DNA from: Macrostomum lignano
Lineage: Eukaryota
DNA length: 64,000 bases
Reading direction: 5' to 3'
NCBI GenBank assembly: GCA_002269645.1
Contig: NIVC01001601.1
Span: forward strand, 62,001-126,000
A model generated the notes under the pieces. The model saw only the letters and a program-made list of their open reading frames with translations, was not told the origin of the DNA and did not search any database. Shown piece by piece: positions 42,151-64,000 of this stretch. Position numbers and translations under genes: made by a program. The stretch's first letter is position 1. Each line of letters opens with the position of its first letter.

Positions 42151-42756
42151 GCCATATTTAACGACGCAAATACGATTATAGCCAGGTGTTAGGAGAGGCG
42201 AGCAATGCTGCCTAGAAACAATCCGAAACTCGCATCTCCCCCCCTCCCTCCCAAACCTCTCAAGTCTCCTGCCATCTCAATCTCGCTGATGGTAAACAAC
42301 ATCACGCGAACGCAATAAAAGTGCAGCAGAGACCATCTTCTTGTCTTCTCAAGTCATAGGCTACGAGCGTATATCTTCGTTCAAACTAAGTGCCTCCTTA
42401 ATTCTTCGTTTTTTGTTGAACGGGGGTTGCCTTGTGCAAGCTTACCTACTCCAAAGCACTGCCTATGGAATTTTTTCAGCATGTCGCGCTCACTCAAAGC
42501 AATGAAGAGGGTGAGTTTGCGTGCTGTAAGTAAAAGCAATTTAGGCTCTTACACACAGAACGCATTACCTAGTGAATCGAAACCTGCTCAAAATAGCAAC
42601 TGAAACTCCAACAAAACTTTTTGTAGATGACGAGTGACAGAGAGTCTGCAGTCTTGCTTCATCAAACTACAAGAAGCAAACAGAATCTTTCTCTATGTTA
42701 TTGACAAACTGCATAATAATGAACTACTGAAGTAATAGAAACTTGTACAATTTTTG

Positions 42757-43160
42757 ATGGACGAAGGTTACTGGATAGACGAAGGTTACTGGATGGACGA
42801 AGGTTACTGGATGGACGAAGGTTACTGGATGGACGAAGGTTACTGGATGGACGAAGGTTACTGGATGGACGAAGGTTACTGGATGGACGAAGGTTACTGG
42901 ATGGACGAAGGTTACTGGATGGACGAAGGTTACTGGATGGACGAAGGTTACTGGATGGACGAAGGTTACTGGATGGACGAAGGTTACTGGATTGATGAAG
43001 GTTACTGGATGGACGAAGGTTACTGAATTGACGAAGGTTACTGAATTTACGAAGGTTACTGGATGGACGAAGGTTACCGGATGGACGAAGGTTACTGGAT
43101 GGACGAAGGTTACTGAATTGACGAAGGTTACTGAATGGACGAAGATAAATGTATCAGGAT
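42757..43160. repeat. 18-bp minisatellite (GACGAAGGTTACTGGATG)n
   Basis: Seen directly; gives the DEGYWM repeat ORF. Confidence 0.95.
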
Positions 43161-43505
43161 GAAGGTAGCTGGACCAAGGTTTCTAGACGAAGGCCCTTTA
43201 CACGGCTGCTGCTGTGTCGCGCCGGGACATCCGGTGGTTGCCGGTGTCCGCAGCGCGGTCCCCCTTTGGAGAGTCCAGGACGTGAATAAGTCGCTCGTCC
43301 GAAAGTCCTCAGGTACATGTGTAGCTAACAGAAATTCTAGGGGCCTGAAAACGTCGGAAAATTAGCCCGGGTTTGGGACGAGCTAGGTGAGCCTGTCCTG
43401 ATCGCAAAGGATTTTATGGTGGGGGAACAAAGACAAGAATTCTAAAAGTACATGTATGTGACTGAATTCCTTCGTGTACATCATTCTGTTGACAGTGTTG
43501 TCACA

Positions 43506-43851
43506 CTCATTTTGGTGCCGCAGGCACTCATTTTGGCGCGACAGGCACTCATTTTGGCGCGACAGGCACTCATTTTGGCGCCACAGGCACTTATTTTGGC
43601 ACCATAAGCACTCATTTTGGCGCCACAGGCACTCATTTTGGCACCATAAGCACTCATTTTGGAGTCATTTTGGTGCCGCAGACACTCATTTTGGCGCCGC
43701 AGGTGCTAGGCTTTGTCGCCCTGAAGCAAAATTATTGTATTTCCACAAGATCACAACGCCACAAGGTGGGGTGGGACGAAGCATTGGCATGTCCATAGCG
43801 TTTACTGGGGGGGACATGCCCCCTGCCCCCCCCCAGTGGCGACGCCCCCTG
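43506..43851 (-). mobile_element. MITE copy (9463 family) with internal 21-bp tandem expansion
   Basis: Minus strand starts CAGGGGGCGTCGCCACTGGGGGGGGCAGGGGGCATGTCCCCCCCAGTAAA, homologous to 9463, then runs into ~9 copies of GCCTGCGGCGCCAAAATGAGT-type units (43506-43700). Confidence 0.72.
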
Positions 43852-44544
43852 ATGCCCCGCATCCTTAACACCACGCTTAGAGGCAGAATGGCCATTCCGC
43901 ACTACGGATTTTCCCTGGGAGGTGACGATGTGCTAAATTATATATAAATAAAAATTAGTGTTCGTCTAACTCGAAATAAAAGAAATATTTTATTAGAAAT
44001 AGGTTCTCTGTGCGCTTTGAGTTACCCCATACTTTGCATTACAAACTGTTACTTAATTCGAAATTATTTTAGATTTCAACCACTTTTGTGGGTTTTTGTA
44101 ACAGTTTAGTGTAATGTCCGCGTAAAATAATTATTCAAGCGTGGTAGACTAGTATTAGTAGACTGCACGTACATGCAAATACACATGTTTTTTGTTGAAG
44201 AATATCGTTTTCAGCCTTCTAGATAGAACGATTACATTCAGAACAACAACATACTGTCATATATTAGGCAACTCCCTGCCCGCACATGATGCTTCCCAAA
44301 TATTCCCGAAATATAGAAGTTCCTTTGAAAGTATCCATAAATACTCGTAGAAGGCATCCAGCATTGTCTTCACTCGAGCCTGGCTTTTGCATACGGGAAA
44401 CTGTCAGACAAAAGCGAACCAAAAAACAACCGTCTTTTTACGCATCATTTACTGTATTTAATATCGCTACGAGAATTCGTGGATATCAAGGAACAGTAGT
44501 TATTAATACTTCTAGATACGCCTACAGAAGGAATGACTTATTGC

Positions 44545-46305
44545 GGAGCTGTTGGAGTGGTGGAATGGGGGCGGAGCTGTTGGAGGGGTGGCGGTATGGG
44601 GGCGGAGCTGTTGGAGGGGTGGCGGTTGGGGGCGGAGCTGTTGGAGGGGTGGCGGTATGGGGGCGGAGCTGTTGGAGGGGTGGCGGTTGGGGGCGGAGCT
44701 GTTGGAGGGGTGGCGGTATGGGGGCGGAGCTGTTGGAGGGGTGGCGGCATGGGGGCGGAGCTGTTGGAGGGGTGGCGGTTGGGGCGGAGCTGTTGGAGGG
44801 TGGCGGTATGGGGGCGGAGCTGTTGGAGGGGTGGCGGTATGGGGCGGAGCTGTTGGAGGGGTGGCGGTTGGGGGCGGAGCTGTTGGAGGGGTGGCGGTAT
44901 AAAAGGCGGAGCTGTTGGAGGGGTGGCGGTATGGGGGCGGAGCTGTTAGAGGGGTGGCGGTATGGGGGCGGAGCTGTTGGAGGGGTGGCGGTTGGGGGCG
45001 GAGCTGTTGGAGGGGTGGCGGTATGGGGGGCGGAGCTGTTGGAGGGGGGCGGTATGGGGGCGGAGCTGTTGGAGGGGTGGCGGTATGGGGCGGAGCTGTT
45101 GGAGGGGTGGCGGTTGGGGGCGGAGCTGTTGGAGGAGTGGCGGTATGGGGGCGGAGCTGTTGGAGGGGTGGCGGTATGGGGGCGGAGCTGTTGGAGGGGT
45201 GGCGGTATGGGGGCGGAGCTGTTGGAGGGGTGGCGGTTGGGGCGGAGCTGTTGGAGGAGTGGCGGTATGGGGGCGGAGCTGTTGGAGGGGTGGCGGTATG
45301 GGGGCGGAGCTGTTGGAGGGGTGGCGGTATGGGGGCGGAGCTGTTGGAGGGGTGGCGGTATGGGGGCGGGGCTGTTGGAGGGGTGGCGGTATGGGGGCGG
45401 GGCTGTTGGAGGGGTGGCAGTGAGCTGTTGGAGGAGTGGCGGTATGGGGGCGGAGCTGTTGGAGGAGTGGCGGTATGGGGGCGGAGCTGTTGGAGGGGTG
45501 GCGGTATGGGGGCGGAGCTGTTGGAGGGTGGCGGTATGGGGCGGAGCTGTTGGAGGGGTGGCGGTATGGGGGCGGAGCTGTTGGAGGGGTGGCGGTATGG
45601 GGGCGGAGCTGTTGGAGGGGTGGCGGTATGGGGCGGAGCTGTTGGAGGGGTGGCGGTATGGGGGCGGAGCTGTTGGAGGGGTGGCGGTTGGGGGCGGAGC
45701 TGTTGGAGGGGTGGCGGTATGGGGGCGGAGCTGTTGGAGGGGTGGCGGTATGGGGGCGGAGCTGTTGGAGGGGTGGCGGTATGGGGGCGGAGCTGTTGGA
45801 GGGGTGGCGGTATGGGGGCGGAGCTGTTGGAGGGGTGGCGGTTGGGGCGGAGCTGTTGGAGGGGTGGCGGTATGGGGGCGGAGCTGTTGGAGGGGTGGCG
45901 GTATGGGGGCGGAGCTGTTGGAGGGGTGGCGGTTGGGGGGAGCTGTTGGAGGGGTGGCGGTATGGGTGCGGAGCTGTTGGAGGGGTGGCGGTATGGGGGC
46001 GGAGCTGTTGGAGGGTGGCGGTATGGGGGCGGAGCTGTTGGAGGGGTGGCGGTATGGGGCGGAGCTGTTGGAGGGGTGGCGGTATGGGGGCGGAGCTGTT
46101 GGAGGGGTGGCGGTATGGGGGGCGGAGCTGTTGGAGGAGTGGCGGTATGGGGGGCGGAGCTGTTGGAGGAGTGGCGGTATGGGGGGCGGAGCTGTTGGAG
46201 GAGTGGCGGTATGGGGGGCGGAGCTGTTGGAGGAGTGGCGGTATGGGGGGCGGAGCTGTTGGAGGAGTGGCGGTATGGGGGGCGGAGCTGTTGGAGGAAT
46301 GGCGA
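44545..46305. repeat. ~31-bp G-rich satellite (GGCGGAGCTGTTGGAGGGGTGGCGGTATGGG)n
   Basis: Tandem copies seen directly, with extreme G skew. Confidence 0.97.
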
Positions 46306-46862
46306 TGGCGTGCAAAGCTGTGATTGAGTTGTGAAGAGCGCGGATTTATCCTGAGACTTTTTGGAGTAGTGATCGAAGTTATCAAGTCGACGAAGATCGA
46401 CTCTGGGCATAAACTGTAAGTCTATGTCTATTAAGGAATGTAGTCTAAAAAATACATTGACAGGAAAGCAAAGTTCAGTTTTACAAAAAAATAAGTTTTA
46501 GTCCATTAGGAGGTTAGCAAAATTGTCAGTAATAAACAGAGTTCCACCGGAACTTTCAGCGTCCAGGAAGTGCCCGTTGGTCAACCGCCTGCAATCGCCG
46601 AGTGTTAGTCTGCCCGTGGGCAAATGGAGCAAATCATGTTGCTTGAGTCACGTTTCTGAATTTTGTGCACGTGAAGGTACGAGTATAGAGTCAAGAAAAA
46701 ACTATGGGAAACCCTAGGGCCATTGATTCATTTTTTACTTATAATGGACTCAGACCTTGACTAATCCCTACTTCACTGAAATTAAACAACGAGCCGCATG
46801 CAGGACTCTCGTATGACAATGCAATCAAGGTAAACAGAATCACAGCATTTCGTGGAACTTAC

Positions 46863-51234: not shown

Positions 51235-53684
51235 CTGAGCTCAAGACCCCAAAACCTACCCCACCAGGTGGCCTTCAGACCCCAGGGAAGATGACAGGTG
51301 CGGTCATAAATCATGCGCAAAACATTATAAAAGCCACTTGTCTAGACACCCTGGCGCCAAAAGTGACAGCAAAACACCATAAATTAAAAGAGAATTGTAA
51401 CAGAGCGAGTGGGGAGAAGGCTGGAAAGGCCTCTTTGACCCAGACAGGCTGGAGCCAAAAGTGACAGCTAGACCGCCATAAATCACTAAAAACAGTGAAA
51501 AAGCCGCAAATCTGGGGTCAGATGGGGTTAAAACCATCACTCCCAGACTTAGTGTCGCCCGTCTACTGCTAGAGGTCAATCCGTCTCAAACCCAGACAGT
51601 CTGACCTTCAAAGATGCGTAACAATCCAAAATTAGAATCCTAAGAGAAGTACATTGAGTATTTATCATAATTAAATAGTGATGGCATAAATTAGTGTAGA
51701 ACTTAGCCTGGATGAGAGAATGGAGAGAGGTTCCTAAGCTAGCCTAACTGACAGTATTCCCCTATAGGGGAAAAAGCGCATCGCGAAATGTGCGGTTTTA
51801 AGATTGCAAAAAGATGCGTCCTCATCACTCCGCTGCACGCCCGGTACGTCAGGGACACGTAACAAGCTGAGTTCTTTTCCCCACCTCAGCTGTGAGGAGG
51901 ATAGCGCTGCAGTCAAGAGCGACCGTTCCTCCCTGAGCGACAGTTGTGGTGGTGTAAGCTCCACTGCAAAACAAGAGCTGTGAATTGATAAACATTCAGC
52001 AAATATATGATAACGAAGTCGCATTCCAAGCTTAATAGCTACACACCAATTATTAAGTTCACAAGTACCTAGCTAAATTCGTGACCATTGAGGCACACAG
52101 CTGTTACCAAATAGCTATACCATGGTTTAATGAGCTGAACTCAATAGACTAGAAGTCCTTAGCTGAAATATTTTGGGGCAAAACTTTTGAACCATAATCT
52201 ATAAGATTTTACTACGGTCGCATTTGGGGCCTAAGTTTAAAATTTTGATTTAAAAGTTTTAAAATATAGCGACATGGAAAGATGCCAACATTTTGCAACG
52301 GATTGATAACGAGAAAACGTATTAAAATAAATATGCTAAGCACTAATTCTCTACACATTTTATAAAGGTTTTGTAAGTCTTAAGGACCTTATAAAATTAT
52401 TATAAAATCCACTCTAAGACATAATTAAACGACCTTAAAATATCTTGAGTCATTGAAATCTCATCCGCATAATTTAGATTTTAGTACCACGTAGTTACAA
52501 ATACAAGTTGTGTGTGCGTCTGTGTGTGATGTGCTATGAAGGTTAGCTTATTCACTGAGTAAGACTAGCATGCATGCATTATAGAAGTAGTAGTTATAAT
52601 ATATATATGGCAAACTCAAAAGCAAATGCTTTTATGTCTCGAGCTGTCTTTCAATCATCAGTAACAGCCAAGCAAACAACCATCACTCTCAGTATGTTAT
52701 GACGTCTCTAAACTTAGAGAATTCATGCAGAGAGGTTTCGGTTTGCAGGCCGTCCCACCAAGTCCCAAGGCCCAAGAAAAGACTAGGCGGCTAGGCCTAG
52801 GCCCCATTTAAGCCGAAAATAAATAAAAACTTGTAAGTTAAGTGCAATGTTTCAAAAATGTTTGAACCATGGTTGACAAAATGACAATGATATAGGACAC
52901 CCATGTAGTAACGAGTGCTGGCTACAATTGCCTTCATTTACTGAATGGCTGCTAGTTTAACTAGTTTTTAACTGCATCTAAAGCTTTGATTTGTTGCCGG
53001 CACTCGTTACTGCACCAATCCTATGCACTCCTGACCCCTGCCTAACAATGATTCAATATTTTTATTTGAGATATATTTCTTCATACATTTTAAGTTTAAC
53101 ATGAATTCTAACACATTGGTCTTGAATCTATATAACTTTGTCTTTATTTTATGCAATATATAGCTTTAAGTATCATAATATATAATAATAATGTCATCTT
53201 TAAATCAATTAGGCCCTAAGTCTCTTAGAAAAATGCAATTAGATGAGCAATTTTTTAAAAACTCTTTTAGACCTGTCTTTAGTTATATTGATTGCAATAT
53301 TAGGCTCTATCAAGAAAGTATTGTTTATTTATAAGTGATTTTTTGTTTTTATTAGATATAGGGTGCCTATATAATTTTGTGAACTTTATCTATTATTCAT
53401 AATTATTTTTAATTTAGGCTGTCGTATATAGGGGCCTATATTTATAATATTTTATAAACCTACAATCAAAATAAGATCTTGTTAGTTATTACTTGCACAT
53501 TGTCTTTGGCCAAGTTCATAAGAAAAATATCCATTTAAAATATTTTAAACAGATGTTGCTATTATTGTTCTTCTGGTCTCTCATTTCTATGGCTCTGGGT
53601 CTACTTCAAATATCAATGTGAAAGCCAAATAACTGAGGCGGCAGATTCAACTGATTTTTCGGTTTTTCGATTTTTAGCGGTTTC

Positions 53685-54002
53685 TGATACTCCCAATTGG
53701 GGTTCTTATATTCTAAGAAATGATTAAGTCTTTAAGCGATTTCAATATTTAGAACAAACTAAATTTGCTTATCAAAAACCGAAAGGCAGCAAACGGTTGC
53801 TTCCTCAAGTCTGCTCAGCGTGTCTATTTATACCCAAAATTTGTTATAGTTTAAACAAAATAATAATTGCAGAAATATTTTTGCAAACCACAACATTCAA
53901 ACAAATATTTCGCGCAGATTTGAATAAAGGTTTTTCTAAGAAAGGCAAACATAAAACGAGTAAAATTTAAAAGTATTAGAGCTATTATTAATGCCTGTCT
54001 CA
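53685..54002 (-). repeat. 3' LTR (318 bp)
   Basis: Differs from 61950-62267 at 4 positions. Minus-strand ends TGAGAC...GTATCA form a 5/6 terminal inverted repeat. Confidence 0.88.
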
Positions 54003-54014
54003 GCTGCCTTCCCT
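54003..54014 (-). other. Polypurine tract
   Basis: AGGGAAGGCAGC immediately precedes the 3' LTR on the minus strand. Confidence 0.6.
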
Positions 54015-54447
54015 AAACGCAAATTTTGAACAATAAAATTTACAAAAATGTTTGCGTGAAAAATTTGCTAAGTAGTATTACTAGTATTATAAGGCAAAGA
54101 TTTGTGAAGAAATTCAAAAGAACGATAAGTACATATTTATGAAAAGGCAGTAAAAAGGCAATGGCATAACAAAACTATTTAGTAGTCGCTAATAATAAGG
54201 AAGAGTTAGTAGTGTGAAACAAAGCAAGTGTAGCAACAGAGAACTAAAATACAATTTAAGCAAAAAAGGCAATACAGGTAACGAAAAATATAAAAAAAAT
54301 GTAAGCTAGTAATAATTTCCTATAAGCATAATTGAAAGAAGAATTTAGCTACTAAATGCTACAAATACTACTAAGCTAGTAATAAAGCAAAAACAAAAAC
54401 AATATCAGTACTTTTGCAAATGTTCGATTCAGAGTAACCCTTGTCAT

Positions 54448-55437
54448 TTAGAAGTAGCAATTTCGCGGGAGGTCTCTGTACTCGAGCCATCCGAGCTGGG
54501 TGAAAACCCATCTCACCTCAATGTTGACAAGCTGTCTCTGAATTGGCTGTCGGCTGGCATCCAGATCGTCTCGAAATCGGTCGATGGCGTATCGCAGCAG
54601 AGCGATGGCTTCCTCTCGCGAAAGTCGGGTTCTCAGCTGCCTCAGGCTTGGCCACAGGTAAGCCCGCTGTGGCAACGCCTGGTCGAGGCGCAGGTGGGCT
54701 ATCCTTTCCAGATAAACCCTGATGCCGTGCACAACTCGTTCGAGCGTAACGCCGTGCATGTCGATAAGGGCTAGCGCCGTTTCATGGTACTCTCGCCTTG
54801 GCTGTAGCGGCGGATTAGGCACAGGCTGCAGTGGCTGCCTGGGTGTTGCTGGCTGATGTGGCGGAGGCGGCTGCTGCTGCTGTGGCGGCCGACTCGGCGG
54901 CTGCGGCTGGTTCGACGGCTGCGGCAGACGTCTTGGCGACGAATGGCGCGGCGGCTGTGGTGGACGTCTCGGCTGACGTCTCATTGCTGACTGCTGTGGA
55001 GGCGCGGCCAGCTGAAGGGTGCGCCGCTCTTCTCCGGCGCATGGTCTTACGACCAAAGACTTGATTGGCGCTTTTGCTTGAGCATCCAGAAGAGCGGCCC
55101 TCTTGGCTGGAATTGATGATTGTTCAGCGGCTGGCGGTCGCTTGCCTGTTCCTGACAGGGCTCTTGGTCTCGTCGGAGCTCGCAATGGCGCCTCCTCAAT
55201 GTCAGGCGCCGATCGGCTGGTTGATGGCGCGAACGTCGCTGCAGGCTGATTTGCTGATGAAGCTGGCGGCCGAGCTGACGGTACTGGCGACTCAGCTGGC
55301 GGCTCGGCTGGCTGCTCAGCTGGCTGCTCAGCCGGCTGGTCTGGAGGTCGAACTGGCGGCGCTGGAGGCTGCGCTGGAGGCTCAGCTGGCTGGTCTGCTG
55401 CGGCGGCGACGGCTAATTCCTCCATGGAGTCGTCCAC
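54448..55437 (-). CDS. Extra ORF3 of the Gypsy element, function unknown, not env-like
   Basis: 329 open codons in gag/pol sense between pol and the PPT. Pro/Ala/Gln-rich N-terminal part and a ~115-aa complex C-terminal part. No signal peptide or TM segment. The first in-frame ATG is at 55425. Confidence 0.65.
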   Translation of the reverse strand: MDDSMEELAVAAAADQPAEPPAQPPAPPVRPPDQPAEQPAEQPAEPPAESPVPSARPPASSANQPAATFAPSTSRSAPDIEEAPLRAPTRPRALSGTGKRPPAAEQSSIPAKRAALLDAQAKAPIKSLVVRPCAGEERRTLQLAAPPQQSAMRRQPRRPPQPPRHSSPRRLPQPSNQPQPPSRPPQQQQPPPPHQPATPRQPLQPVPNPPLQPRREYHETALALIDMHGVTLERVVHGIRVYLERIAHLRLDQALPQRAYLWPSLRQLRTRLSREEAIALLRYAIDRFRDDLDASRQPIQRQLVNIEVRWVFTQLGWLEYRDLPRNCYF

Positions 55438-55861
55438 AAATCTTTTAAGAAATTATCTAAGTCGTCGTCCATTCTAGCTCGCAATATATATTCTTGCGGT
55501 ATTAACTCAAGATTGACTTGGAGAGGTGTGATCGACGGGTCTATGGAGCTGCAGGGAGTTCAATTGTATATCTGAAAAACTGGACCGCATCTTCGTGTTC
55601 GCACGAGAGGGGGTTTAGCAAATTTCTAACGAGCTCGCTCATTGGCTCACACCGTTACTAAGCGTTGCTAGGATTTTTATGCGGAACGAGTTTCGAACAA
55701 TACCTGCACAATTCTGTATACTCTACTGTTAGTAATGCGCATAACATTTTTACTGTATATGCAAATTTAATATTTTTGTATTTTTATAGATTTTATGATT
55801 TTTACTTTTTATGAGTTTTATATTGAGTCTATTTACACATTTTTACATGGATTCGGCCTCA

Positions 55862-58800
55862 TTACTTTCGGTAATGAGAATATCGCCTCCGGGGAACAAA
55901 GCCTGTTGCGACTGAGTTCTCTCGGGGTCTCAAATTATATTGATGTCTTTGTTCGGCTCTTTCATTCTCACCTATCTCTAATGCGTCATCTTCCTCAGCT
56001 AACTCAGTTCTTTCACTGTCTGTTGACTCATCTTCTATCTCATTCTGCTCAATTTCCTCTTGCTCAACTTCTTCCTCAATTGGCTCGATCTCTCTTGCTC
56101 TCCACTGAATTCTTTCGTCTTCCGAACTGTCAGTTTCTATTATTGGCTCTAAATGATTTTTCTTACTAATCTGTTGCCTTCCCTTATTTTTCGGCTCTCT
56201 CTTTTTCTGTTGTTCTCTCTGCCTTCCCCTATTTGTAGGTTCCGTCTCTTTATTTGGTTCATTCGGCAAATCTATTTGCGAGTTGGGTACTGGAGTGAGG
56301 TTGTTTCGATGTACGAGCATCTTCTCGCCAATCCTTACTCCGTCTATTTCTCGCTGTACTCGAAATACTGTTTCGGAAAGTCTCGCAAGGACTCTGAATG
56401 CTGCTCTTTTCTTGCGGTGAAATTTATGGCTTTCTTCACTGTGTAATTGCGGATTGTTAATCAATGCGAGGCATCCAACCGGTACATGCTTCGGTGGCTT
56501 GTTCTCAGCATTGTCCTCCTCTCTACGGTCCTTTACCTTCTCTAGCTTCTTCTGCACGAGTTTCTGTGCTTCTTCGAGCCTTTCAGCATGGTTTAGCACA
56601 TAGCTCGGATAATCGTGATACTGCTTTGGCCTTCGAATAATACTGTCTATCCTAAGATCTGCCTCCCTACCAAATAGCAGGTAGTGCGGCGTGAATCCGG
56701 TGGTCTGGTTCACACTAGTGCGCACAGCTACCAGAGCTGCGGGAATTAGCAAATCCCAGTCGGAATGATCTTTCTCTACTAGACAAGTTACTATTGACTT
56801 TATTTGTTTATTGAATCTTTCGACTAGTCCGTTACTTTGTGCGTGATACGGTGTGGTGCATGTATGCTTGATGCCATACATCCTACAAAATGCTTGGAAC
56901 TGACGGCTGACGAATGTCTTGCCATTGTCAGTGTGGATCCACTGGCATTGTCCGTATTCGCTAAAGATTCTTTCTTGTATGATCTTAATCACTATATCCG
57001 ATTTCTGATTTCGCACTGGGAACGCAAATGGGAACCGAGTAGTGCTATCTACTACTGTTAGTACGTAGCGATGACCTCTTCGACTCTCTTTTGAGATCGG
57101 CCCAATCAGGTCAATATGGATCCTATGAAACGGTTCGCATATTGGAAAGGACTGCACTGGCGCCTTCACCTTATTTCCTGCCTTACTCTCTAAACAAGGA
57201 ATACATTCCGAAATATACTTCTCTACTGCAGTTGCTAGTCCTGGTCGCCAAAATCGATCGCGCACACGTTGCAGTGTTTTATCACGACCTAGGTGACCTG
57301 AGAGAGGACTGTCATGCAACTCTCGGAATACTTTTTTCTCAATGTTCTCTGGCAACACGACCTTCTGTGTCCCGTCTTCGTCTATGGTCAATAACTCGTC
57401 TTCTAGCTTCATCTGCTTATAGAACTTTAACATCTGCTTCAACTCTCTAGTTGCATCCTTTGGTAATTTCGGTTCTCGGATACTCTGCTCCTTCCAGGCT
57501 ATCAGCGTCCTCATAGAAGGGTCGTCACGCTGAGCTGATGTCAGCTGCTCCTTCTTAAGCGGGACGAAGAGATAGTCGGTTAGGAGTTTCCGACAAGCGG
57601 TCTCACTAACGTTTTCTTCCGCATCCTCATACACTTCTTCATCATCAGCGAAGTAATCGCTGGCGTCCTCATACTCTTCTTCTTCATCTTCGAAATATTC
57701 TCTTGCATCTTCGTACTCTTCATCGTCTTCTACTTCTTCTCTAATTGGATCAGTCTGACAGCTCTGGTGCTTACAGCTTGAGATATTGGTCTGACTTCGG
57801 TTTACCGTAACGGTAGGAAGTACTGGACCTATCTCAGCTTTAGTGCACTTTTCTGCCTTAGTCTCCTGATTATCTTTTAATCTTTCTGCGGGTCGTCTGG
57901 ATAGTCCGTCTGCATTGGTGTGTTTAGCACCGCTGCGGTGTTCAATGTCATACTGAAACTCACTTAATCTCTCAATCCATCTACCGAGGATTCCCTGCGC
58001 TTCAGTCTGGCGAAGTAGCCATAGGATAGCGCGATGATCTGTTCTTGCCAGGAATCTCTTTCCGATGAGATAGAATCGGAAGTGTTTCATTCCGTCAACT
58101 AATGCTAGCAATTCTTTTCTTGTGATTGGATACCTCTTTTCTGATTCCTTCATGGCTCTGCTAAAGTACGCGATGGGCCTTTCAACTCCATCGGATTGTA
58201 TCTGACCTAAGCAGGCCCCAATCCTGTCATCACTCGCGTCGGTGTCAAGCACCATTCGAACTTCTTCATTGTCAGTGAACTCTGGGTATGCTAAAACTTC
58301 TGTTGATGTCATCTTCTGCTTTAGTAGCGCAAAGGCTTCATCATGACTCTTAGTCCATTTCTCCCTAAAATTCTGAATTCCCTTCTTAGTTAGCTGGAAG
58401 AGCGGGTGCGCTGCTTCCGCGTAATTCTTCACGAACCTACAGTAATAGTTACATAGACCTAGGAAGCTTCTTAATTCTTTAACGTCCTTAGGCGTCGGCC
58501 ATGACTGAATTGCTTCTATCTTAGCTGGATCTGTCTTAATTCCTTCTCTACCAACTATGTGTCCTAGATATTTAAGCTCTTTTTGAAATAGATTACATTT
58601 CTTCGGCCTTAATTTTAATCCGGCTGTTACTAGTCTCTGGAACACTTCTCGTAGGTGATCCAGGTGATCCTCAAATTTCGTTGAGTAAGTTACTATGTCG
58701 TCAATGTACGACATGGCGAATTTATGTTGAATCCCCATCAATACTAGGTTCATTAGTCTCTGGAATGTTCCAGGTGCATTAGATAGTCCCTGCGCCATGA

Positions 58801-60409
58801 CCTGATACTCGAACTGTCCCATAGTCAAAGTCGAAAATGCTGTCATGAATTTATCCTCTTCCTTAATTGGTACCTGCCAATAACCTGAATTTAAGTCTAA
58901 ACTACTGAAATATTGACTTCCCGTTAGATGAGAGAAAGTTTCCTGAATATTCGGCAACGGATACGGATAGTAGTTAACTCGAGAGTTCAAGACTCTGAAA
59001 TCGCTGACAATCCTAATAGTTCCATCTTTCTTAGGCACTATTACTAATGGCGTCGAATAAGTGCTATAGCACGGCCTTATTAAATTTTTAGCGAGCATAT
59101 CGTCTAACTGTTCGTCTACTTGCTTCTGCAGATGTGGTGGTATTCTGCGAGTAGGTATTCTGACTGGCGTCGTATCCTTCAGCGAGATTTCGTGGGTCAC
59201 TAGATGAGTGAGGCCCATCTCCTGGCTTGTCTGCGAGAATGCTTCCCTATTCTCTTTCAGCAGCTCTACTACCTTTTCTTTCTGCTCTGATGATAGCTCA
59301 TCTGAGATGTTAATCTCCTGAATCCATTCATCAGTACGAGTATCAGCAGTTTCAGCGCATTTCGCGGATTTAACTTGTCCGGTGTCATTCTTGGTAACGA
59401 AGTACGTTAGTTCTTCGGCTTTTAATGGCTTGGCAATGCCTACCATTGCTGATTTCCTAATCACTACGTCGTTATTCTGCCTATTGATCACTTCTACCAC
59501 ACCAGTTCCATTACTCATCGTTAATAAGGTTGGAACCATATCCAGTGTGTCATCTTTTACTGAGATATGTCCTTTGGTGGTCTCAATCATCATTGGCGTA
59601 CCGAAGTTCATTTCAGCTCGTTTAGCTAGTTTGACTGGTATTCTTAAAGCACTATTAGCTGGCACAACTACCTTGTCGTGACAGTAGACTCGGCACACTC
59701 GTACCGGCAATTTAGTAAACTGCATCGGAATGCAAACTCCGGTTTTTAAAATCATCATTCCTTTGTCAAAACTCATACTCTCGCAAAAGTTCATAAAGAA
59801 ATCCATTCCTAGGATATCATCACACTCATGGTTGCACAGCAGGAAGTCGGTCACAATTTCTACTTCTCCGAACATTATCTTTATTGTCACTTCTCCTTCG
59901 ATTCGCACAATCGATCCATCGAATGTGGTCACTCTTTGATCAGATGGCCTGATCTCTTGTTCTCTACATACTCTTCTCCAAGTACTTTTACTTAGAAAGT
60001 TACGACCGGCTCCTGTGTCTAACAGAAAGCGAATATTCTGCTTGCGGATCTTTCCGTCAATGACTGCTTCTCGGCCTTTCTTCTCTGTGCCGGCATCTAA
60101 ACTTGTCTCTTCTTCTGCACTTTCATTCAGCTTGACGTACTCTTCTGGCTTCGGAGTACTTTTCTTGGGTAAGCAATCAGGTGCACGCGTAGTATTTACA
60201 TTCGGTACTGTATGTGCATTCGCATGTTTTTTGTTGGGTTTTCTAAACTTATTATAATTTTCGCATGATTTGTACTTGTACTGCTTATTAACTTTGTACG
60301 CATTATTAACTTTGTACGCATTATTTACAAATTCAGAGGCCTGAATTTTGCTCTGGATTTCGCTAGAGGGACGTGGCCTCGTTATTCGGCCCTCGCTTCT
60401 CAGTTTCCC
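55862..60409 (-). CDS. pol: Gypsy Pol (protease, RT, RNase H, integrase), reached by -1 frameshift
   Basis: The frame is open without stops from 60409 (translated by hand), extending the track ORF. LLDTGA (PR), LDLNSGYWQ and YIDDIV (RT), LDTDASD...ELLAL...TDH (RH), HDSPLSGH...CIPC (zinc finger), HIDLIGP/TDNG/ERFN (DDE). Confidence 0.96.
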   Translation of the reverse strand, partial: GKLRSEGRITRPRPSSEIQSKIQASEFVNNAYKVNNAYKVNKQYKYKSCENYNKFRKPNKKHANAHTVPNVNTTRAPDCLPKKSTPKPEEYVKLNESAEEETSLDAGTEKKGREAVIDGKIRKQNIRFLLDTGAGRNFLSKSTWRRVCREQEIRPSDQRVTTFDGSIVRIEGEVTIKIMFGEVEIVTDFLLCNHECDDILGMDFFMNFCESMSFDKGMMILKTGVCIPMQFTKLPVRVCRVYCHDKVVVPANSALRIPVKLAKRAEMNFGTPMMIETTKGHISVKDDTLDMVPTLLTMSNGTGVVEVINRQNNDVVIRKSAMVGIAKPLKAEELTYFVTKNDTGQVKSAKCAETADTRTDEWIQEINISDELSSEQKEKVVELLKENREAFSQTSQEMGLTHLVTHEISLKDTTPVRIPTRRIPPHLQKQVDEQLDDMLAKNLIRPCYSTYSTPLVIVPKKDGTIRIVSDFRVLNSRVNYYPYPLPNIQETFSHLTGSQYFSSLDLNSGYWQVPIKEEDKFMTAFSTLTMGQFEYQVMAQGLSNAPGTFQRLMNLVLMGIQHKFAMSYIDDIVTYSTKFEDHLDHLREVFQRLVTAGLKLRPKKCNLFQKELKYLGHIVGREGIKTDPAKIEAIQSWPTPKDVKELRSFLGLCNYYCRFVKNYAEAAHPLFQLTKKGIQNFREKWTKSHDEAFALLKQKMTSTEVLAYPEFTDNEEVRMVLDTDASDDRIGACLGQIQSDGVERPIAYFSRAMKESEKRYPITRKELLALVDGMKHFRFYLIGKRFLARTDHRAILWLLRQTEAQGILGRWIERLSEFQYDIEHRSGAKHTNADGLSRRPAERLKDNQETKAEKCTKAEIGPVLPTVTVNRSQTNISSCKHQSCQTDPIREEVEDDEEYEDAREYFEDEEEEYEDASDYFADDEEVYEDAEENVSETACRKLLTDYLFVPLKKEQLTSAQRDDPSMRTLIAWKEQSIREPKLPKDATRELKQMLKFYKQMKLEDELLTIDEDGTQKVVLPENIEKKVFRELHDSPLSGHLGRDKTLQRVRDRFWRPGLATAVEKYISECIPCLESKAGNKVKAPVQSFPICEPFHRIHIDLIGPISKESRRGHRYVLTVVDSTTRFPFAFPVRNQKSDIVIKIIQERIFSEYGQCQWIHTDNGKTFVSRQFQAFCRMYGIKHTCTTPYHAQSNGLVERFNKQIKSIVTCLVEKDHSDWDLLIPAALVAVRTSVNQTTGFTPHYLLFGREADLRIDSIIRRPKQYHDYPSYVLNHAERLEEAQKLVQKKLEKVKDRREEDNAENKPPKHVPVGCLALINNPQLHSEESHKFHRKKRAAFRVLARLSETVFRVQREIDGVRIGEKMLVHRNNLTPVPNSQIDLPNEPNKETEPTNRGRQREQQKKREPKNKGRQQISKKNHLEPIIETDSSEDERIQWRAREIEPIEEEVEQEEIEQNEIEDESTDSERTELAEEDDALEIGENERAEQRHQYNLRPRENSVATGFVPRRRYSHYRK

Positions 60410-61425
60410 TGGTTATTCGAGCGGTTCTGCATCTGCGGAGCGTTCTGCTTGGCACTCCTGCACTGCTTTGCAATGTGGCCAATCTTCCCGCAGTTATAGC
60501 AAGTCTGCGGCTGTTGTCTCGGCTGACCCTGGTTTGGGTGCTGCTGCCGGGCGAACATTTGCTGTCGCGCCTGCGCTCCATTGCCATACTGTGGCGGAAC
60601 GGGCTGCGGCTGCTGGGGCTGGTATCTCTGTGGATACTGCCTGGCTGCCTGAGCGTACGAATAATTTTGCGAAAACTGCTGCTGATTATTCTGCATCTTC
60701 TCCTCTCTTAGCTCCTGCAAAGCTCTCTTCTGCTGTTCAATCTCGAACTTCTGCTTCCTAATGATCTCTTCCAGTCTTTCTTGTTCAGCCTTCCTCTGCT
60801 GTTCTTGTTCTTCCTCGCTCTTAGCTACTCTCATGCCTGAATTCCTGCGTGACATGTTCCAGGCTGCTTCCATTCTCCTCAGCATTCTTCTGGCTTCCTG
60901 CAGATTAGCTGGCTGAGCGAAGATCAGTTTCTCGCGGGTTTCAGGTGGAACTCTCACACCCTTGATGAACTGTTCCACGATCTCCTCTTCCCGCTGTTCC
61001 ACAGTCATGTTTGGGAAGGCTCGCGAAGCTAGCTCAATTAGACAATCGGTGTACGATTCTACTAACTCATTTCTGCCTTGCATTCGGCCTCTAAATTCTT
61101 CCCTAAACTCTGCTGAACTGCCAATTCTGCCAAAGCGTTCTACAAGTCTTTCTTTAAATTCTTCGTACTCCAGATCATCTGGGAGGTTCAAACGCTGAAC
61201 TGCTGCGAATGCAGTAGCCAGGTCGAGGTTCGCGAGAAGCTCTTGCTTCCGGTTATCCTCTTCGATACCCTCAGCTTCACAGCGCTGGTCGAAGGCAGTC
61301 AACCAGATCCTAATATCTTGACCTGGCGTGAATTTCTGAATTTTCACATGCCTTTGTGGTCCTAACTCTAACCTGTTTCTTAGCTCTTCAGCTAGCATCG
61401 CAATCGCATCATTTGCGTTGGCCAT
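60400..61425 (-). CDS. gag: Gypsy Gag, 341 aa
   Basis: Capsid-like region (FREEFRGRMQGRNELVESY...EQFIKG) and a single CCHC knuckle CYNCGKIGHIAKQC. Confidence 0.93.
   Translation of the reverse strand: MANANDAIAMLAEELRNRLELGPQRHVKIQKFTPGQDIRIWLTAFDQRCEAEGIEEDNRKQELLANLDLATAFAAVQRLNLPDDLEYEEFKERLVERFGRIGSSAEFREEFRGRMQGRNELVESYTDCLIELASRAFPNMTVEQREEEIVEQFIKGVRVPPETREKLIFAQPANLQEARRMLRRMEAAWNMSRRNSGMRVAKSEEEQEQQRKAEQERLEEIIRKQKFEIEQQKRALQELREEKMQNNQQQFSQNYSYAQAARQYPQRYQPQQPQPVPPQYGNGAQARQQMFARQQHPNQGQPRQQPQTCYNCGKIGHIAKQCRSAKQNAPQMQNRSNNQGN
60403..60409 (-). promoter_or_regulatory. -1 ribosomal frameshift slippery site G GGA AAC
   Basis: The heptamer is in correct phase directly before the gag stop, and the pol frame opens only one codon earlier (TAA CCA GGG AAA CTG). 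Confidence 0.85.
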
Positions 61426-61531
61426 CTCTGATCTTGTCAGGTTCTGCTATTTCTCTAGTCTTCTAAGGTTTTTGCCGTTTCTCTGATCTAATTCGCGCCG
61501 TTTCTCTGATCTAATTCTCGCCGTTTCTCTG

Positions 61532-61549
61532 ATCCCACCGCTGCCACCA
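61532..61549 (-). other. Primer-binding site complementary to tRNA-Leu 3' end
   Basis: TGGTGGCAGCGGTGGGAT is the 18-nt complement of ...ATCCCACCGCTGCCACCA, the 3' end of eukaryotic tRNA-Leu(AAG/TAG) as I recall it. Confidence 0.85.
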
Positions 61550-61949
61550 AAAGCTGTCGTAGGGCTCTTATTTAATCCTTTGTCTAGCCTTACTTGCTGC
61601 CACCAAAGTTGTTACAAAGCTATTTCTTCTTAACAATTCTACTGGTTGTTAATTGTAATTCTACTGGTAGCGCATGTACTTCTATTGGTAGCGTATGTAC
61701 TTCTATTGATAGCGTATGTACTTCTATTGTACTTTCTGGCCTGAGCGGTCTAATAGCACTGTCTATTCTATTCCTATGCTTCCCCTAATATTATTCTCTC
61801 AGTCCTGGGCGTTCCCTGGATCAGAGGGTCACAGCTTATGCTCTTTCTCTGCCCTGAGGCGATCTTCTCTCGTTATGAGGCGGTTCTCCTGCCCTGAGGC
61901 GAATTTACAATTTACTGCCCTGAGGCGGTTTCTCGCTTGTAGCGGTTTC

Positions 61950-62267
61950 TGATACTCCCAATTGGGGTTCTTATACTCTAAGAAATGATTAAGTCTTTAA
62001 GCGATTTCAATATTTAGAACGAACTAAATTTGCTTATCGAAAACCGAAAGGCAGCAAACGGTTGCTTCCTCAAGTCTGCTCAGCGTGTCTATTTATACCC
62101 AAAATTCGTTATAGTTTAAACAAAATAATAATTGCAGAAATATTTTTGCAAACCACAACATTCAAACAAATATTTCGCGCAGATTTGAATAAAGGTTTTT
62201 CTAAGAAAGGCAAACATAAAACGAGTAAAATTTAAAAGTATTAGAGCTATTATTAATGCCTGTCTCA
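61950..62267 (-). repeat. 5' LTR (318 bp)
   Basis: Direct repeat of 53685-54002; contains a minus-strand TATAAATAGA at 62088-62097. Confidence 0.88.
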
Positions 62268-63195
62268 ATAATAACTTATAGACCATTGTATTTGATAGTC
62301 ACAATCTCAATATATTATCTTACAAATAGGCCTATAATGTCTAAGATAGAATTCCAAATAAGAAGCACATTCAGTTCAAGTTACAAGGGGTTTCTAATTG
62401 TATAGGTGAACCAAAGGTTTAGTCTATTGTGGAATGCGGGATGCTTGTTGGTTCAGTTTTAGTGAGTCAATTTAGCAGTTTTGGCATTTGGGTTAAGACC
62501 CTAATTGTGTCAATCAAAGGTTGTTCTACAAAAATAGAAGGCAAAAAGGAGGGAAAAGGGAGGCAAGCTTCTTGCTTGGTTGACATGGGCTTTTTTAATA
62601 CTTTTTGGTCTTGATCACATTGGATGGTATATAGCTACTTTCCATTAGTTTGGGTTGTGTCCTCAGCTTTTGCTAGTTGGAGCACATACATTGGTTAAAA
62701 TACATTCATTCTGGATAAGAACTTTTTAGAGCCAAAATGTGTCACTTCATATTATTAGATATTTTATCTAAAAATTTTTAGATCTTTTATCTACTATTAT
62801 ACTAGATCTATAATAATTCTAAGCCTAAGAAGGTTGGGCAAAATCTAGATTATTAGCTATATATGGCTTAAGAAACCTTTAAATAAAATTTAGGGTATTT
62901 AGTTACTTTTTGTAATAGTAATATGGTTTACTTTATATCTTAGTCTTATTTTATGTGTTCTTTGCTCTTTTTTTCTAAAAATATTTGTTATTTTTTCTTT
63001 CTTTATTCTTTTATTTACTTATCTTTGTTTATTAATAGAAAACCACTATTATAACAATAATAATAATAATAATAACAACAAAAATATGAAGTCATTATTA
63101 GAGTAGGACATATTAGATAGGCCCTAGTACATTGCAGAGCCTAAAAGTTAAAATCAATGTTAGGTGCCCATGCCCTAGTATTGCATACTAGGTAG

Positions 63196-64000
63196 CAGTG
63201 GCATAGTCAGGGGGAGGCCCCCCATTGCCTGGGGGATTGGGTTGGGTGTGGTGGGTACCAAAAACCATGAGGCAATTGAGTGCTTGCAGCGCCAAAATGA
63301 GTGCCTGCAGCACCAAAATGAGTGCCTGCAGCATCAAAATGAGTGCCTCCAGCACCAAAATGAGTGCCTCCAGCACCAAAATGAGTGCCTGCAGTGCCAA
63401 AATGAGTGCCTGCAGTGCCAAAATGAGTGCCTGCAGCACCAAAATGAGTGCCTGTAGTGCCAAAATGAGTGCCTGCAGCACCAAAATGAGTGCCTGCGGT
63501 GCCAAAATGAGTGCCTGCAGCGCCAAAATGAGTGCCTGCAGCACCAAAATGAGTGCCTGCAGCATCAAAATGAGTGCCTCCAGCACCAAAATGAGTGCCT
63601 CCAGCACCAAAATGAGTGCCTGCAGTGCCAAAATGAGTGCCTGCAGCACCAAAATGAGTGCCTGTAGTGCCAAAATGAGTGCCTGCAGCACCAAAATGAG
63701 TGCCTGCGGTGCCAAAATGAGTGCCTGCAGCACCAAAATGAGTGCCTGCAGCACCAAAATGAGTGCTTCCAGCACCAAAATGAGTGCCTCCAGCACCAAA
63801 ATGAGTGCCTGTAGTGCCGAAATGAGTGCCTGCAGCACCAAAATGAGTGCCTGTATTGCCAAAATGAGTGCTTGCAGTGCCAAAATGAGTGCCTGCAGCA
63901 CCAAAATGAGTGCCTCCAGCACCAAAATGAGTGCCTGCAGTGCCAAAATGAGTGCCTGCAGTGCCAAAATGAGTGCCTGCAGCACCAAAATGAGTGCCTG
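63196..64000 (+). repeat. MITE-like head followed by 21-bp satellite (GCCTGCAGCACCAAAATGAGT)n, running off the window end
   Basis: CAGTGGCATAGTCAGGGGGAGG at 63196, then more than 30 units from ~63284. The unit is the reverse complement of the 43506-43700 unit. Confidence 0.93.

Follow-up and report, generated by a model that had tools for sequence, protein, structure and literature searches.

A conserved non-env third gene of a Ty3/gypsy retrotransposon clade in the flatworm Macrostomum lignano

Our analysis indicates that ORF3, an open reading frame behind pol in a retrotransposon of Macrostomum lignano, is the third gene of a whole Ty3/gypsy clade in this flatworm. The element lies on the minus strand of a 64,000-nucleotide stretch of the genome, hereafter called the window. 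ORF3 is under purifying selection (omega ~0.06). It represents an orphan family with a confident small predicted fold, a likely internal promoter, signs of exchange together with the LTR promoter, and a possible fragment kept by the host. The initial annotation of this DNA had proposed a non-env third ORF in the env position of a gypsy element, and this proposal is borne out: the ORF is conserved, selected and devoid of env features.

The host element is a Ty3/gypsy LTR retrotransposon (Metaviridae), as is evident from its LTRs, primer-binding site (PBS), polypurine tract, gag, and the PR-RT-RH-IN order of pol. The 5' LTR (61555..62267, 713 bp, TG...CA) has a TATA box at 62098-62089 and is 98% identical to the 3' LTR across 343 nt; its end was defined with the help of the PBS and of a contig joint from sequencing run X1. 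The PBS (61532..61549), which we take to be of the tRNA-Leu type, recurs as an identical word behind the 5' LTR in most relatives. It is followed by gag (60400..61446), with one CCHC zinc knuckle (PF00098, E 3e-7), and by pol (55862..60412), which encodes protease, RT, RNase H and integrase in the Ty3/gypsy order. ORF3, counted from its conserved start codon, extends over 54448..55472, and then come an AT-rich 3' UTR (54016..54447), the polypurine tract (54003..54015) and a 3' LTR (53660..54002) that is truncated in the window copy. This LTR ends at ~53660, after 343 of its 713 bp, with loss of a short flank. In one X1 contig that flank is joined to a complete LTR end, and a 4-bp target duplication is visible.

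In each of the four runs, contig depth over the U5 part of the LTR (61538-61831) was far higher than elsewhere in the element. This part contains partial PBS-like repeats; it is probably common to many families. The window also holds tandem arrays at 63169-64000 (21 bp), 43483-43741 (21 bp), 44504-46341 (31 bp) and 42666-43223 (18 bp), of which the two 21-bp arrays are mutually related and lie in opposite orientation.

The minus strand has a stop-free frame of 334 codons (55452-54448) in the interval from the stop of pol (55862) to the polypurine tract. Its GC content of 0.61 exceeds that of pol (0.43) and of the 3' UTR (0.28), in agreement with the earlier description of a GC-rich, same-sense ORF in AT-rich surroundings. 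Frames of at least 325 codons appeared in 1 of 300 dinucleotide shuffles, so that length by itself is modest evidence; it is the conservation across copies that makes ORF3 real. In the window copy, the frame does not include the ATG at 55472, and a first ATG in register comes at 55425. The initial annotation had correctly placed the upstream ATG one base out of frame, but alignment with other copies puts the frame break at 55436 and not at 55438-55440, and the residues that it had guessed around the break are read otherwise in natural open copies.

The same one-base break occurs in contig C1352, which matches the window at every one of 1601 nt compared. Contig C1351 (locus L061), by contrast with the window copy, has a single frame from the upstream ATG, although it shares the same flanks and has only 2 mismatches in 8.9 kb, and a separate insertion (L062, contig C390) likewise has a single frame from this ATG. 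In runs X1 and X15, the sole contig over the break site likewise differs from the window there, at full depth. The open copies and these contigs therefore mark the break in the window as an assembly error or a rare allele.

The family is large. Its C-terminal domain (CTD; 54451..54798 in the window) has at least 150 matches in the genome at 27–100% identity, a lower bound since 150 of 225 candidate matches were scored, and 115 of these 150 are stop-free within the match. From the matches we took 40 loci of ~10 kb, chosen to span the 27–100% identity range, and the CTD was present in 39 of them. An integrase match precedes it in 25 of these 39 loci, that is, in all 25 loci with such a match; another 13 contain a gag-like ORF and lack PR, RT and integrase, and the last one had neither an integrase match nor a gag-like ORF. 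The LTR pairs that were found are mostly 97–100% identical, and hence the clade is young in insertion while old in sequence. Two loci show nested insertions: a 733-codon ORF of another element lies inside L085, and an RNase H-like fragment splits ORF3 in L069. Locus L120 was considered as a capture of the gene by a distant gypsy element, and was rejected because it is a decayed fragment.

Codon models gave an omega of 0.063 across 23 sequences of the CTD, 0.096 across 14 of the N-terminal part of ORF3, 0.055 across 10 CTDs of elements without pol and 0.010 across 13 RT sequences, values that are rough because synonymous sites are near saturation. Among 253 pairwise comparisons of the CTD, none of the 25 with dS between 0.05 and 1.5 reached an omega of 1; the median of these 25 was 0.5, and the least saturated pairs gave 0.12–0.24. 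The initial annotation had considered that other copies might lack the ORF, or might show random stops and a dN/dS near 1. Instead, the ORF is kept and omega is far below 1.

A profile search of 1.84 billion representative proteins returned 8 matches, 5 of them at E ≤ 1e-10. Five are proteins of Macrostomum lignano, one is P0002/P0009, and two are weak and look spurious. P0001 is identical to the ORF3 of L073. P0009 has the same layout as ORF3 but is at most 45% identical to anything scored in the genome of the window, which implies that the family exists beyond this assembly.

The 19 natural ORF3 proteins that we examined range from 279 to 535 aa and share one architecture. The first 25 residues have a net charge of -6 to -9 in all 19, just as the acidic N-terminus predicted earlier would require; in the window this region, a predicted amphipathic helix (55398..55472), is split by the frame break. 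A Pro/Gln/Ala-rich linker follows, free in length, with a few conserved basic motifs, so that the disordered Pro/Ala/Gln region with a basic segment noted in the window copy is a property of the family. K/R motifs occur in 17 of the 19 proteins, and those in the window (55009..55194, together with one short helix) resemble nuclear localization signals and may act as such. The CTD comprises ~115 residues and is mildly basic (net charge +1 to +8 in 19/19). AlphaFold2, run on 27 aligned CTDs, predicted five helices (pLDDT 89, pTM 0.82), which upholds the expectation of a helical C-terminal domain. A full-length model of the natural copy L061 has further predicted helices at residues 5-25 and 123-133. 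The homodimer prediction for the CTD scored 0.01, which speaks neither for nor against a dimer. C-terminal prenylation was considered and rejected, since the last Cys does not keep to one CaaX position and one clade lacks this residue.

Relatives of this predicted fold were not found. None of 27 members matched Pfam at E 0.01 (best 0.014), and the best E among PDB sequences was 0.48; neither search revealed a recognisable enzyme domain. The ESM Atlas gave no match by features and a TM of at most 0.27 by structure, and Foldseek against PDB and BFVD gave no match at E ≤ 0.001. A wide VIA-align search found none of 48,161 chains at Z ≥ 8. Its top rows included the KaiA C-domain (Z 7.6, rmsd 3.6, 85 aligned) and the Gle1 CTD (Z 7.5, rmsd 3.6, 116 of 121 aligned), both at the background level for helical bundles. 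A word-indexed search of near and longer proteins also returned no match, but it is weak evidence, as it missed known relatives too.

Judged by signal peptide, membrane anchor and furin site, the ORF3 protein sequences are not those of an errantivirus-type or other env, as the initial annotation had already recognised. No TM-like or signal-like stretch is present in any of the 19 proteins, whose top 19-residue hydropathy is 0.45–1.11. An R-x-K/R-R site is lacking in L061, which is near-identical to the window copy, and occurs in 3 of the 19 family proteins at non-conserved places. Likeness to viral fusion proteins was absent from the Pfam, PDB-sequence, Foldseek (PDB and BFVD) and VIA-align results, although absence from such lists is not exclusion. 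The possibility raised earlier, that the domain is an env or transposase fragment brought in by a nested insertion, finds no such match either.

How ORF3 is expressed is best explained by transcription from an internal promoter between pol and ORF3, which the sequence patterns make likely. Of 20 families, 11 have a TATA box 70–125 nt 5' of the ATG, where 0.16 would be expected, with at most 3 in 300 shuffles; these families are mutually related, but the box nonetheless recurs in unalignable lineages. A conserved block just upstream of the TATA box is found in 15 of the 20 families, and CCAAT in 14 of 26 spacer sequences. The predicted promoter in the window (55549..55672) consists of an X-box-like pair (55672-55654), CCAAT (55648-55638), the conserved block (55600-55572) and a TATA position (55571-55562) that is degenerate in this subfamily.

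The initial annotation had instead proposed expression by splicing to an acceptor upstream of ORF3. The acceptor pattern is indeed present in the window, at 55558-55549, but it occurs in only 4 of 20 families, and the dinucleotide after the conserved block is AG in only 4 of 15. Splicing to this site was therefore rejected as a clade-wide mechanism, and the internal promoter fits better. The window subfamily itself has the block, CCAAT and the X-box-like pair, lacks a canonical TATA box and keeps the AG after the block. For this subfamily, splicing or trans-splicing of a putative ORF3 RNA is possible, the latter because trans-splicing is described as common in M. lignano (PMC5730564).

Four gene models of the family are included in an RNA-based annotation, with the body-region class 'Non-Specific' (PMC7336406); they attest some transcription of the family and imply no start site. 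Contigs of the sequencing runs cover the element without a splice or leader joint, and are neutral on this question, being blind to starts and levels. The gene identifiers of the family had no match in the supplements of PMC12801592, PMC5730564 and PMC5816591. Similarly, four short element motifs had no match in supplement 5 of PMC12801592, which covers only the six HSE families of that study. Canonical heat-shock elements were absent from all 20 LTR starts examined here.

No ungapped motif common to the internal promoter and the LTR exceeded shuffles in any of 18 elements, in a comparison where shuffles could be shorter than the input and short or degenerate sites would escape. The U3 regions of 18 elements (62267-62098 in the window) barely align, yet they keep motifs that we call Forkhead-like (16/18; 2.2 in shuffles), STAT-like (9/18; 0.1) and E2F-like (11/18; 0.6), by patterns that were picked after viewing the sequences. 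The motifs hint at expression in dividing cells.

In all nine pairs with RT more than 95% identical, RT dS is only 0.02–0.055, whereas CTD dS is at least 1.37 or saturated. Such pairs are similar from roughly the middle of the LTR onward through gag-pol, and then lose similarity abruptly across ORF3, the 3' UTR and U3. We examined 19 pairs, which are not independent of one another, and of the 12 that are at least 95% identical upstream, 10 step down between -105 and -18 of the ATG. This step coincides with the expected start of a putative TATA-driven ORF3 RNA. The pattern points to exchange of the block of ORF3, 3' UTR and U3 as a cassette between elements, and the identity step would most simply be read as template switching where a co-packaged subgenomic RNA has its 5' end. 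Over 66 non-independent pairs, U3 similarity correlates with RT identity (rho 0.55) as well as with CTD identity (rho 0.52), a point against a private link of U3 to ORF3. Conflict between the RT and CTD trees was discarded as proof of exchange, because the RT grouping is not rejected by the CTD tree (p-AU 0.16). The case for exchange consequently relies on the step in dS, and exchange would be mostly within subclades. Moreover, since ORF3 and U3 adjoin, linkage alone would make them travel together.

Cassettes are also shared between pol-less and autonomous elements (L075/L074, 97%; L067/L068, 95%). Among the 13 pol-less elements, which have dropped pol and kept ORF3 and U3, the ORF3 frame is uninterrupted in 12. 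This lineage (L065-L067, L069-L073, L075, L077, L085-L087) consists of elements of ~5–6 kb that retain the pol tail, the predicted internal promoter and ORF3. Its mini-gag of 191–197 aa shares 30–42% identity with the gag of autonomous elements and has a degenerate zinc knuckle; the frame is open in 10 of 13 elements, and omega is 0.15.

The CTD also exists outside any detectable element, as an open gene annotated as a transcript. This CTD-only ORF of 118 aa (P0005/P0010; NCBI gene model Mlig026206, from an RNA-based annotation, PMC5730564) is present at three places with shared flanks: C846:44212 (L101:1501-1857), C3012:52820 and C2203:58541. In two copies examined both ways, gag, pol, pol-tail, PBS and LTR had no match within ~9 kb on either side, except for two matches of 27–36 nt and a PBS-like word 2 kb downstream of one copy. 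The gene has the conserved block at -179 and a TATA box at -151, which support a putative promoter independent of the LTR, and AATAAA 107 nt past the stop. Its protein is 33–42% identical to element CTDs, without the acidic helix, linker and C-terminal tail, and second codon positions have changed least (0.33–0.40, versus 0.63–0.77 at third positions). Only 4 synonymous and 2 conservative differences separate the three copies, which are so few and so near-identical that they test host selection weakly. The gene may be a host-kept fragment and a candidate for host co-option. The initial annotation had considered that ORF3 itself might be a captured host gene, but no host relative was found, and because the lone copy outside elements carries the element's promoter, the flow seems to have been from element to host.

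What might ORF3 do? By analogy with foamy viruses, we tentatively favour a role in the nucleus, where ORF3, like Tas, would activate its own element or protect it from silencing; this we consider quite possible though short of probable. A short RNA would run from the internal promoter to the 3' LTR, the basic motifs would carry its protein product to the nucleus, the basic helical CTD would bind to the element's DNA or chromatin, and co-activators would be recruited by the acidic helix, as in Tas. Template switching onto the co-packaged short RNA would swap ORF3 with U3, and, if swapped together, regulator and promoter would travel as a pair. Outside the elements, the CTD-only gene might, as a conjecture, serve the host as a decoy. 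The internal promoter, the acidic helix, the basic motifs and domain, the pairing with U3 and the retention in pol-less elements all fit such a role. Against it, the promoter and LTR have no motif in common that we could detect, whereas Tas binds both, and the predicted fold matched no DNA-binding fold. Furthermore, the U3s are rich in host-factor-like motifs, so that a private activator may perhaps be unneeded.

An alternative explanation, which we consider rather unlikely, might be that ORF3 acts on the element's RNA in the manner of CERV or Rev. It would bind a signal in the 3' UTR, U3 or R and assist export, stability or packaging of the full-length RNA, with the acidic, leucine-rich helix as an export signal. 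Arg-rich motifs and a basic CTD would suit this task, the 3' UTR belongs to the exchanged block, and Cer1 offers a precedent (PMC10309623). The appearance of the mRNA-export factor Gle1 among the top structural rows adds little, as the similarity is not above background and not significant. However, CERV is translated from a spliced mRNA, and the RNA on which it acts contains splice sites; we found no conserved acceptor here.

Counter-defence is an unlikely alternative on our reading of the evidence. The CTD or short motifs would then bind a factor by which the host silences or restricts elements, in the piRNA, RNAi or chromatin pathway, without specificity for the own element, and diversity would reflect an arms race. 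This would account for the short conserved motifs in a long disordered linker, for the CTD dN of 0.17–1.19 against an RT dN of 0–0.10, and for the many old variants kept in subclades of near-uniform pol. Yet a general suppressor could be borrowed in trans, and pol-less elements keep ORF3 open almost throughout; nor did any of the measurable pairs give an omega of 1 or more.

Improbable in our judgement is self-restraint or exclusion of competing or over-abundant copies, as by p22 of Ty1, with the host copy as a co-opted brake. An internal promoter and many divergent types would be expected of such a factor, and the single-domain host copy recalls yeast DRT2 (PMC10951436), but p22 and DRT2 are capsid fragments, the ORF3 CTD has no capsid match, and retention by pol-less parasites is harder to explain. 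Finally, we give hardly any credence to an env remnant, a nested-insertion piece or a functionless chance GC-rich frame: the broken frame of the window copy, the stops in 35 of 150 matches and the 1 in 300 shuffles that reach the length are outweighed by an omega of 0.06–0.10, by the position behind integrase wherever integrase was matched, by the lack of TM, signal or env match and by the confident predicted fold, and the selection data largely refute it.

The Tas-like role could be part of a wider scheme that, taken as a whole, we hold to be doubtful and decidedly unlikely: a foamy-virus-like circuit that evolved independently in an animal Ty3/gypsy clade. It would combine an internal promoter, a family-specific activator or anti-silencer of new fold, a regulator and LTR promoter swapped as a cassette via a subgenomic RNA, and a host-captured binding domain that, without the activation helix, would be a dominant-negative defence gene. 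The accessory proteins of LTR retrotransposons in animals are, with few exceptions, poorly understood, and non-env third ORFs can mostly be recognised as captured enzymes. M. lignano has RNAi and transgenesis, and LTR reporters have already been used in it (PMC12801592), so that questions about ORF3 can be tested there, including by what means retrotransposons remain active in stem cells that piRNAs guard, and whether such regulators are made into decoys by their hosts. Our literature searches found no description of the ORF3 family. In term searches, 'ORF' was absent from the main text of a recent paper on M. lignano LTR elements (PMC12801592), and the genus name from the main text of PMC13524379.

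Several known systems resemble ORF3 in part. Foamy-virus Tas (Bel1) is a protein of low sequence conservation with an acidic activation domain, and its gene has an internal promoter (PMC3798896). Like Tas, ORF3 is located at the 3' end behind a (predicted) internal promoter, and encodes a poorly conserved protein of the 200–300-aa kind with an acidic domain and a second folded domain. Unlike Tas, it belongs to an env-less Ty3/gypsy element and carries its acidic part at the N-terminus; we found neither a sequence or fold match nor a motif common to internal promoter and LTR, and its activating role is a prediction.

Among elements of other animals, the ORF3s of bdelloid LTR retrotransposons (DEDDy exonuclease, GDSL esterase) are also non-env third ORFs after pol, modular and shared between families, and one non-autonomous bdelloid family keeps its ORF3 (PMC5408684). 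They are recognisable captured enzymes or TM proteins, reportedly from spliced messages (PMC5408684), whereas here the predicted fold is an orphan and the predicted promoter is internal. In Oikopleura, the env ORF3 of the Tor3b/4b elements is transcribed from a promoter in or after pol, Penv (PMC4402516), and provides a precedent for the internal promoter proposed here. Tor ORF3 is a true membrane glycoprotein (PMC4402516), in contrast to the flatworm ORF3, which has no TM, signal or furin pattern. CERV of C. elegans Cer1 is likewise a novel accessory protein of an animal gypsy-type element, and is nuclear; its mRNA is spliced, and its task is the export of genomic RNA (PMC10309623). It differs from ORF3 in position and expression, and we saw no homology.

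Beyond animals, the VANC proteins of Arabidopsis VANDAL transposons are also fast-diverging accessory proteins that differ between sister families and are maybe paired with their own cis-sequences (PMC5735166). They belong to plant DNA transposons and act on DNA methylation via tandem-repeat targets (PMC5735166), whereas ORF3 has no Pfam match and no target motif was found for it. Yeast DRT2, a domesticated Ty1' restriction factor, is a single element-derived domain that is transcribed outside a full element (PMC10951436), like the CTD-only gene. DRT2 is a capsid domain with tested activity (PMC10951436), while the stand-alone gene of the flatworm derives from ORF3 and would be a putative restriction factor. 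Non-env third ORFs (PMC5408684), internal promoters (Tor) and novel accessory proteins (CERV, VANC) are already known kinds.
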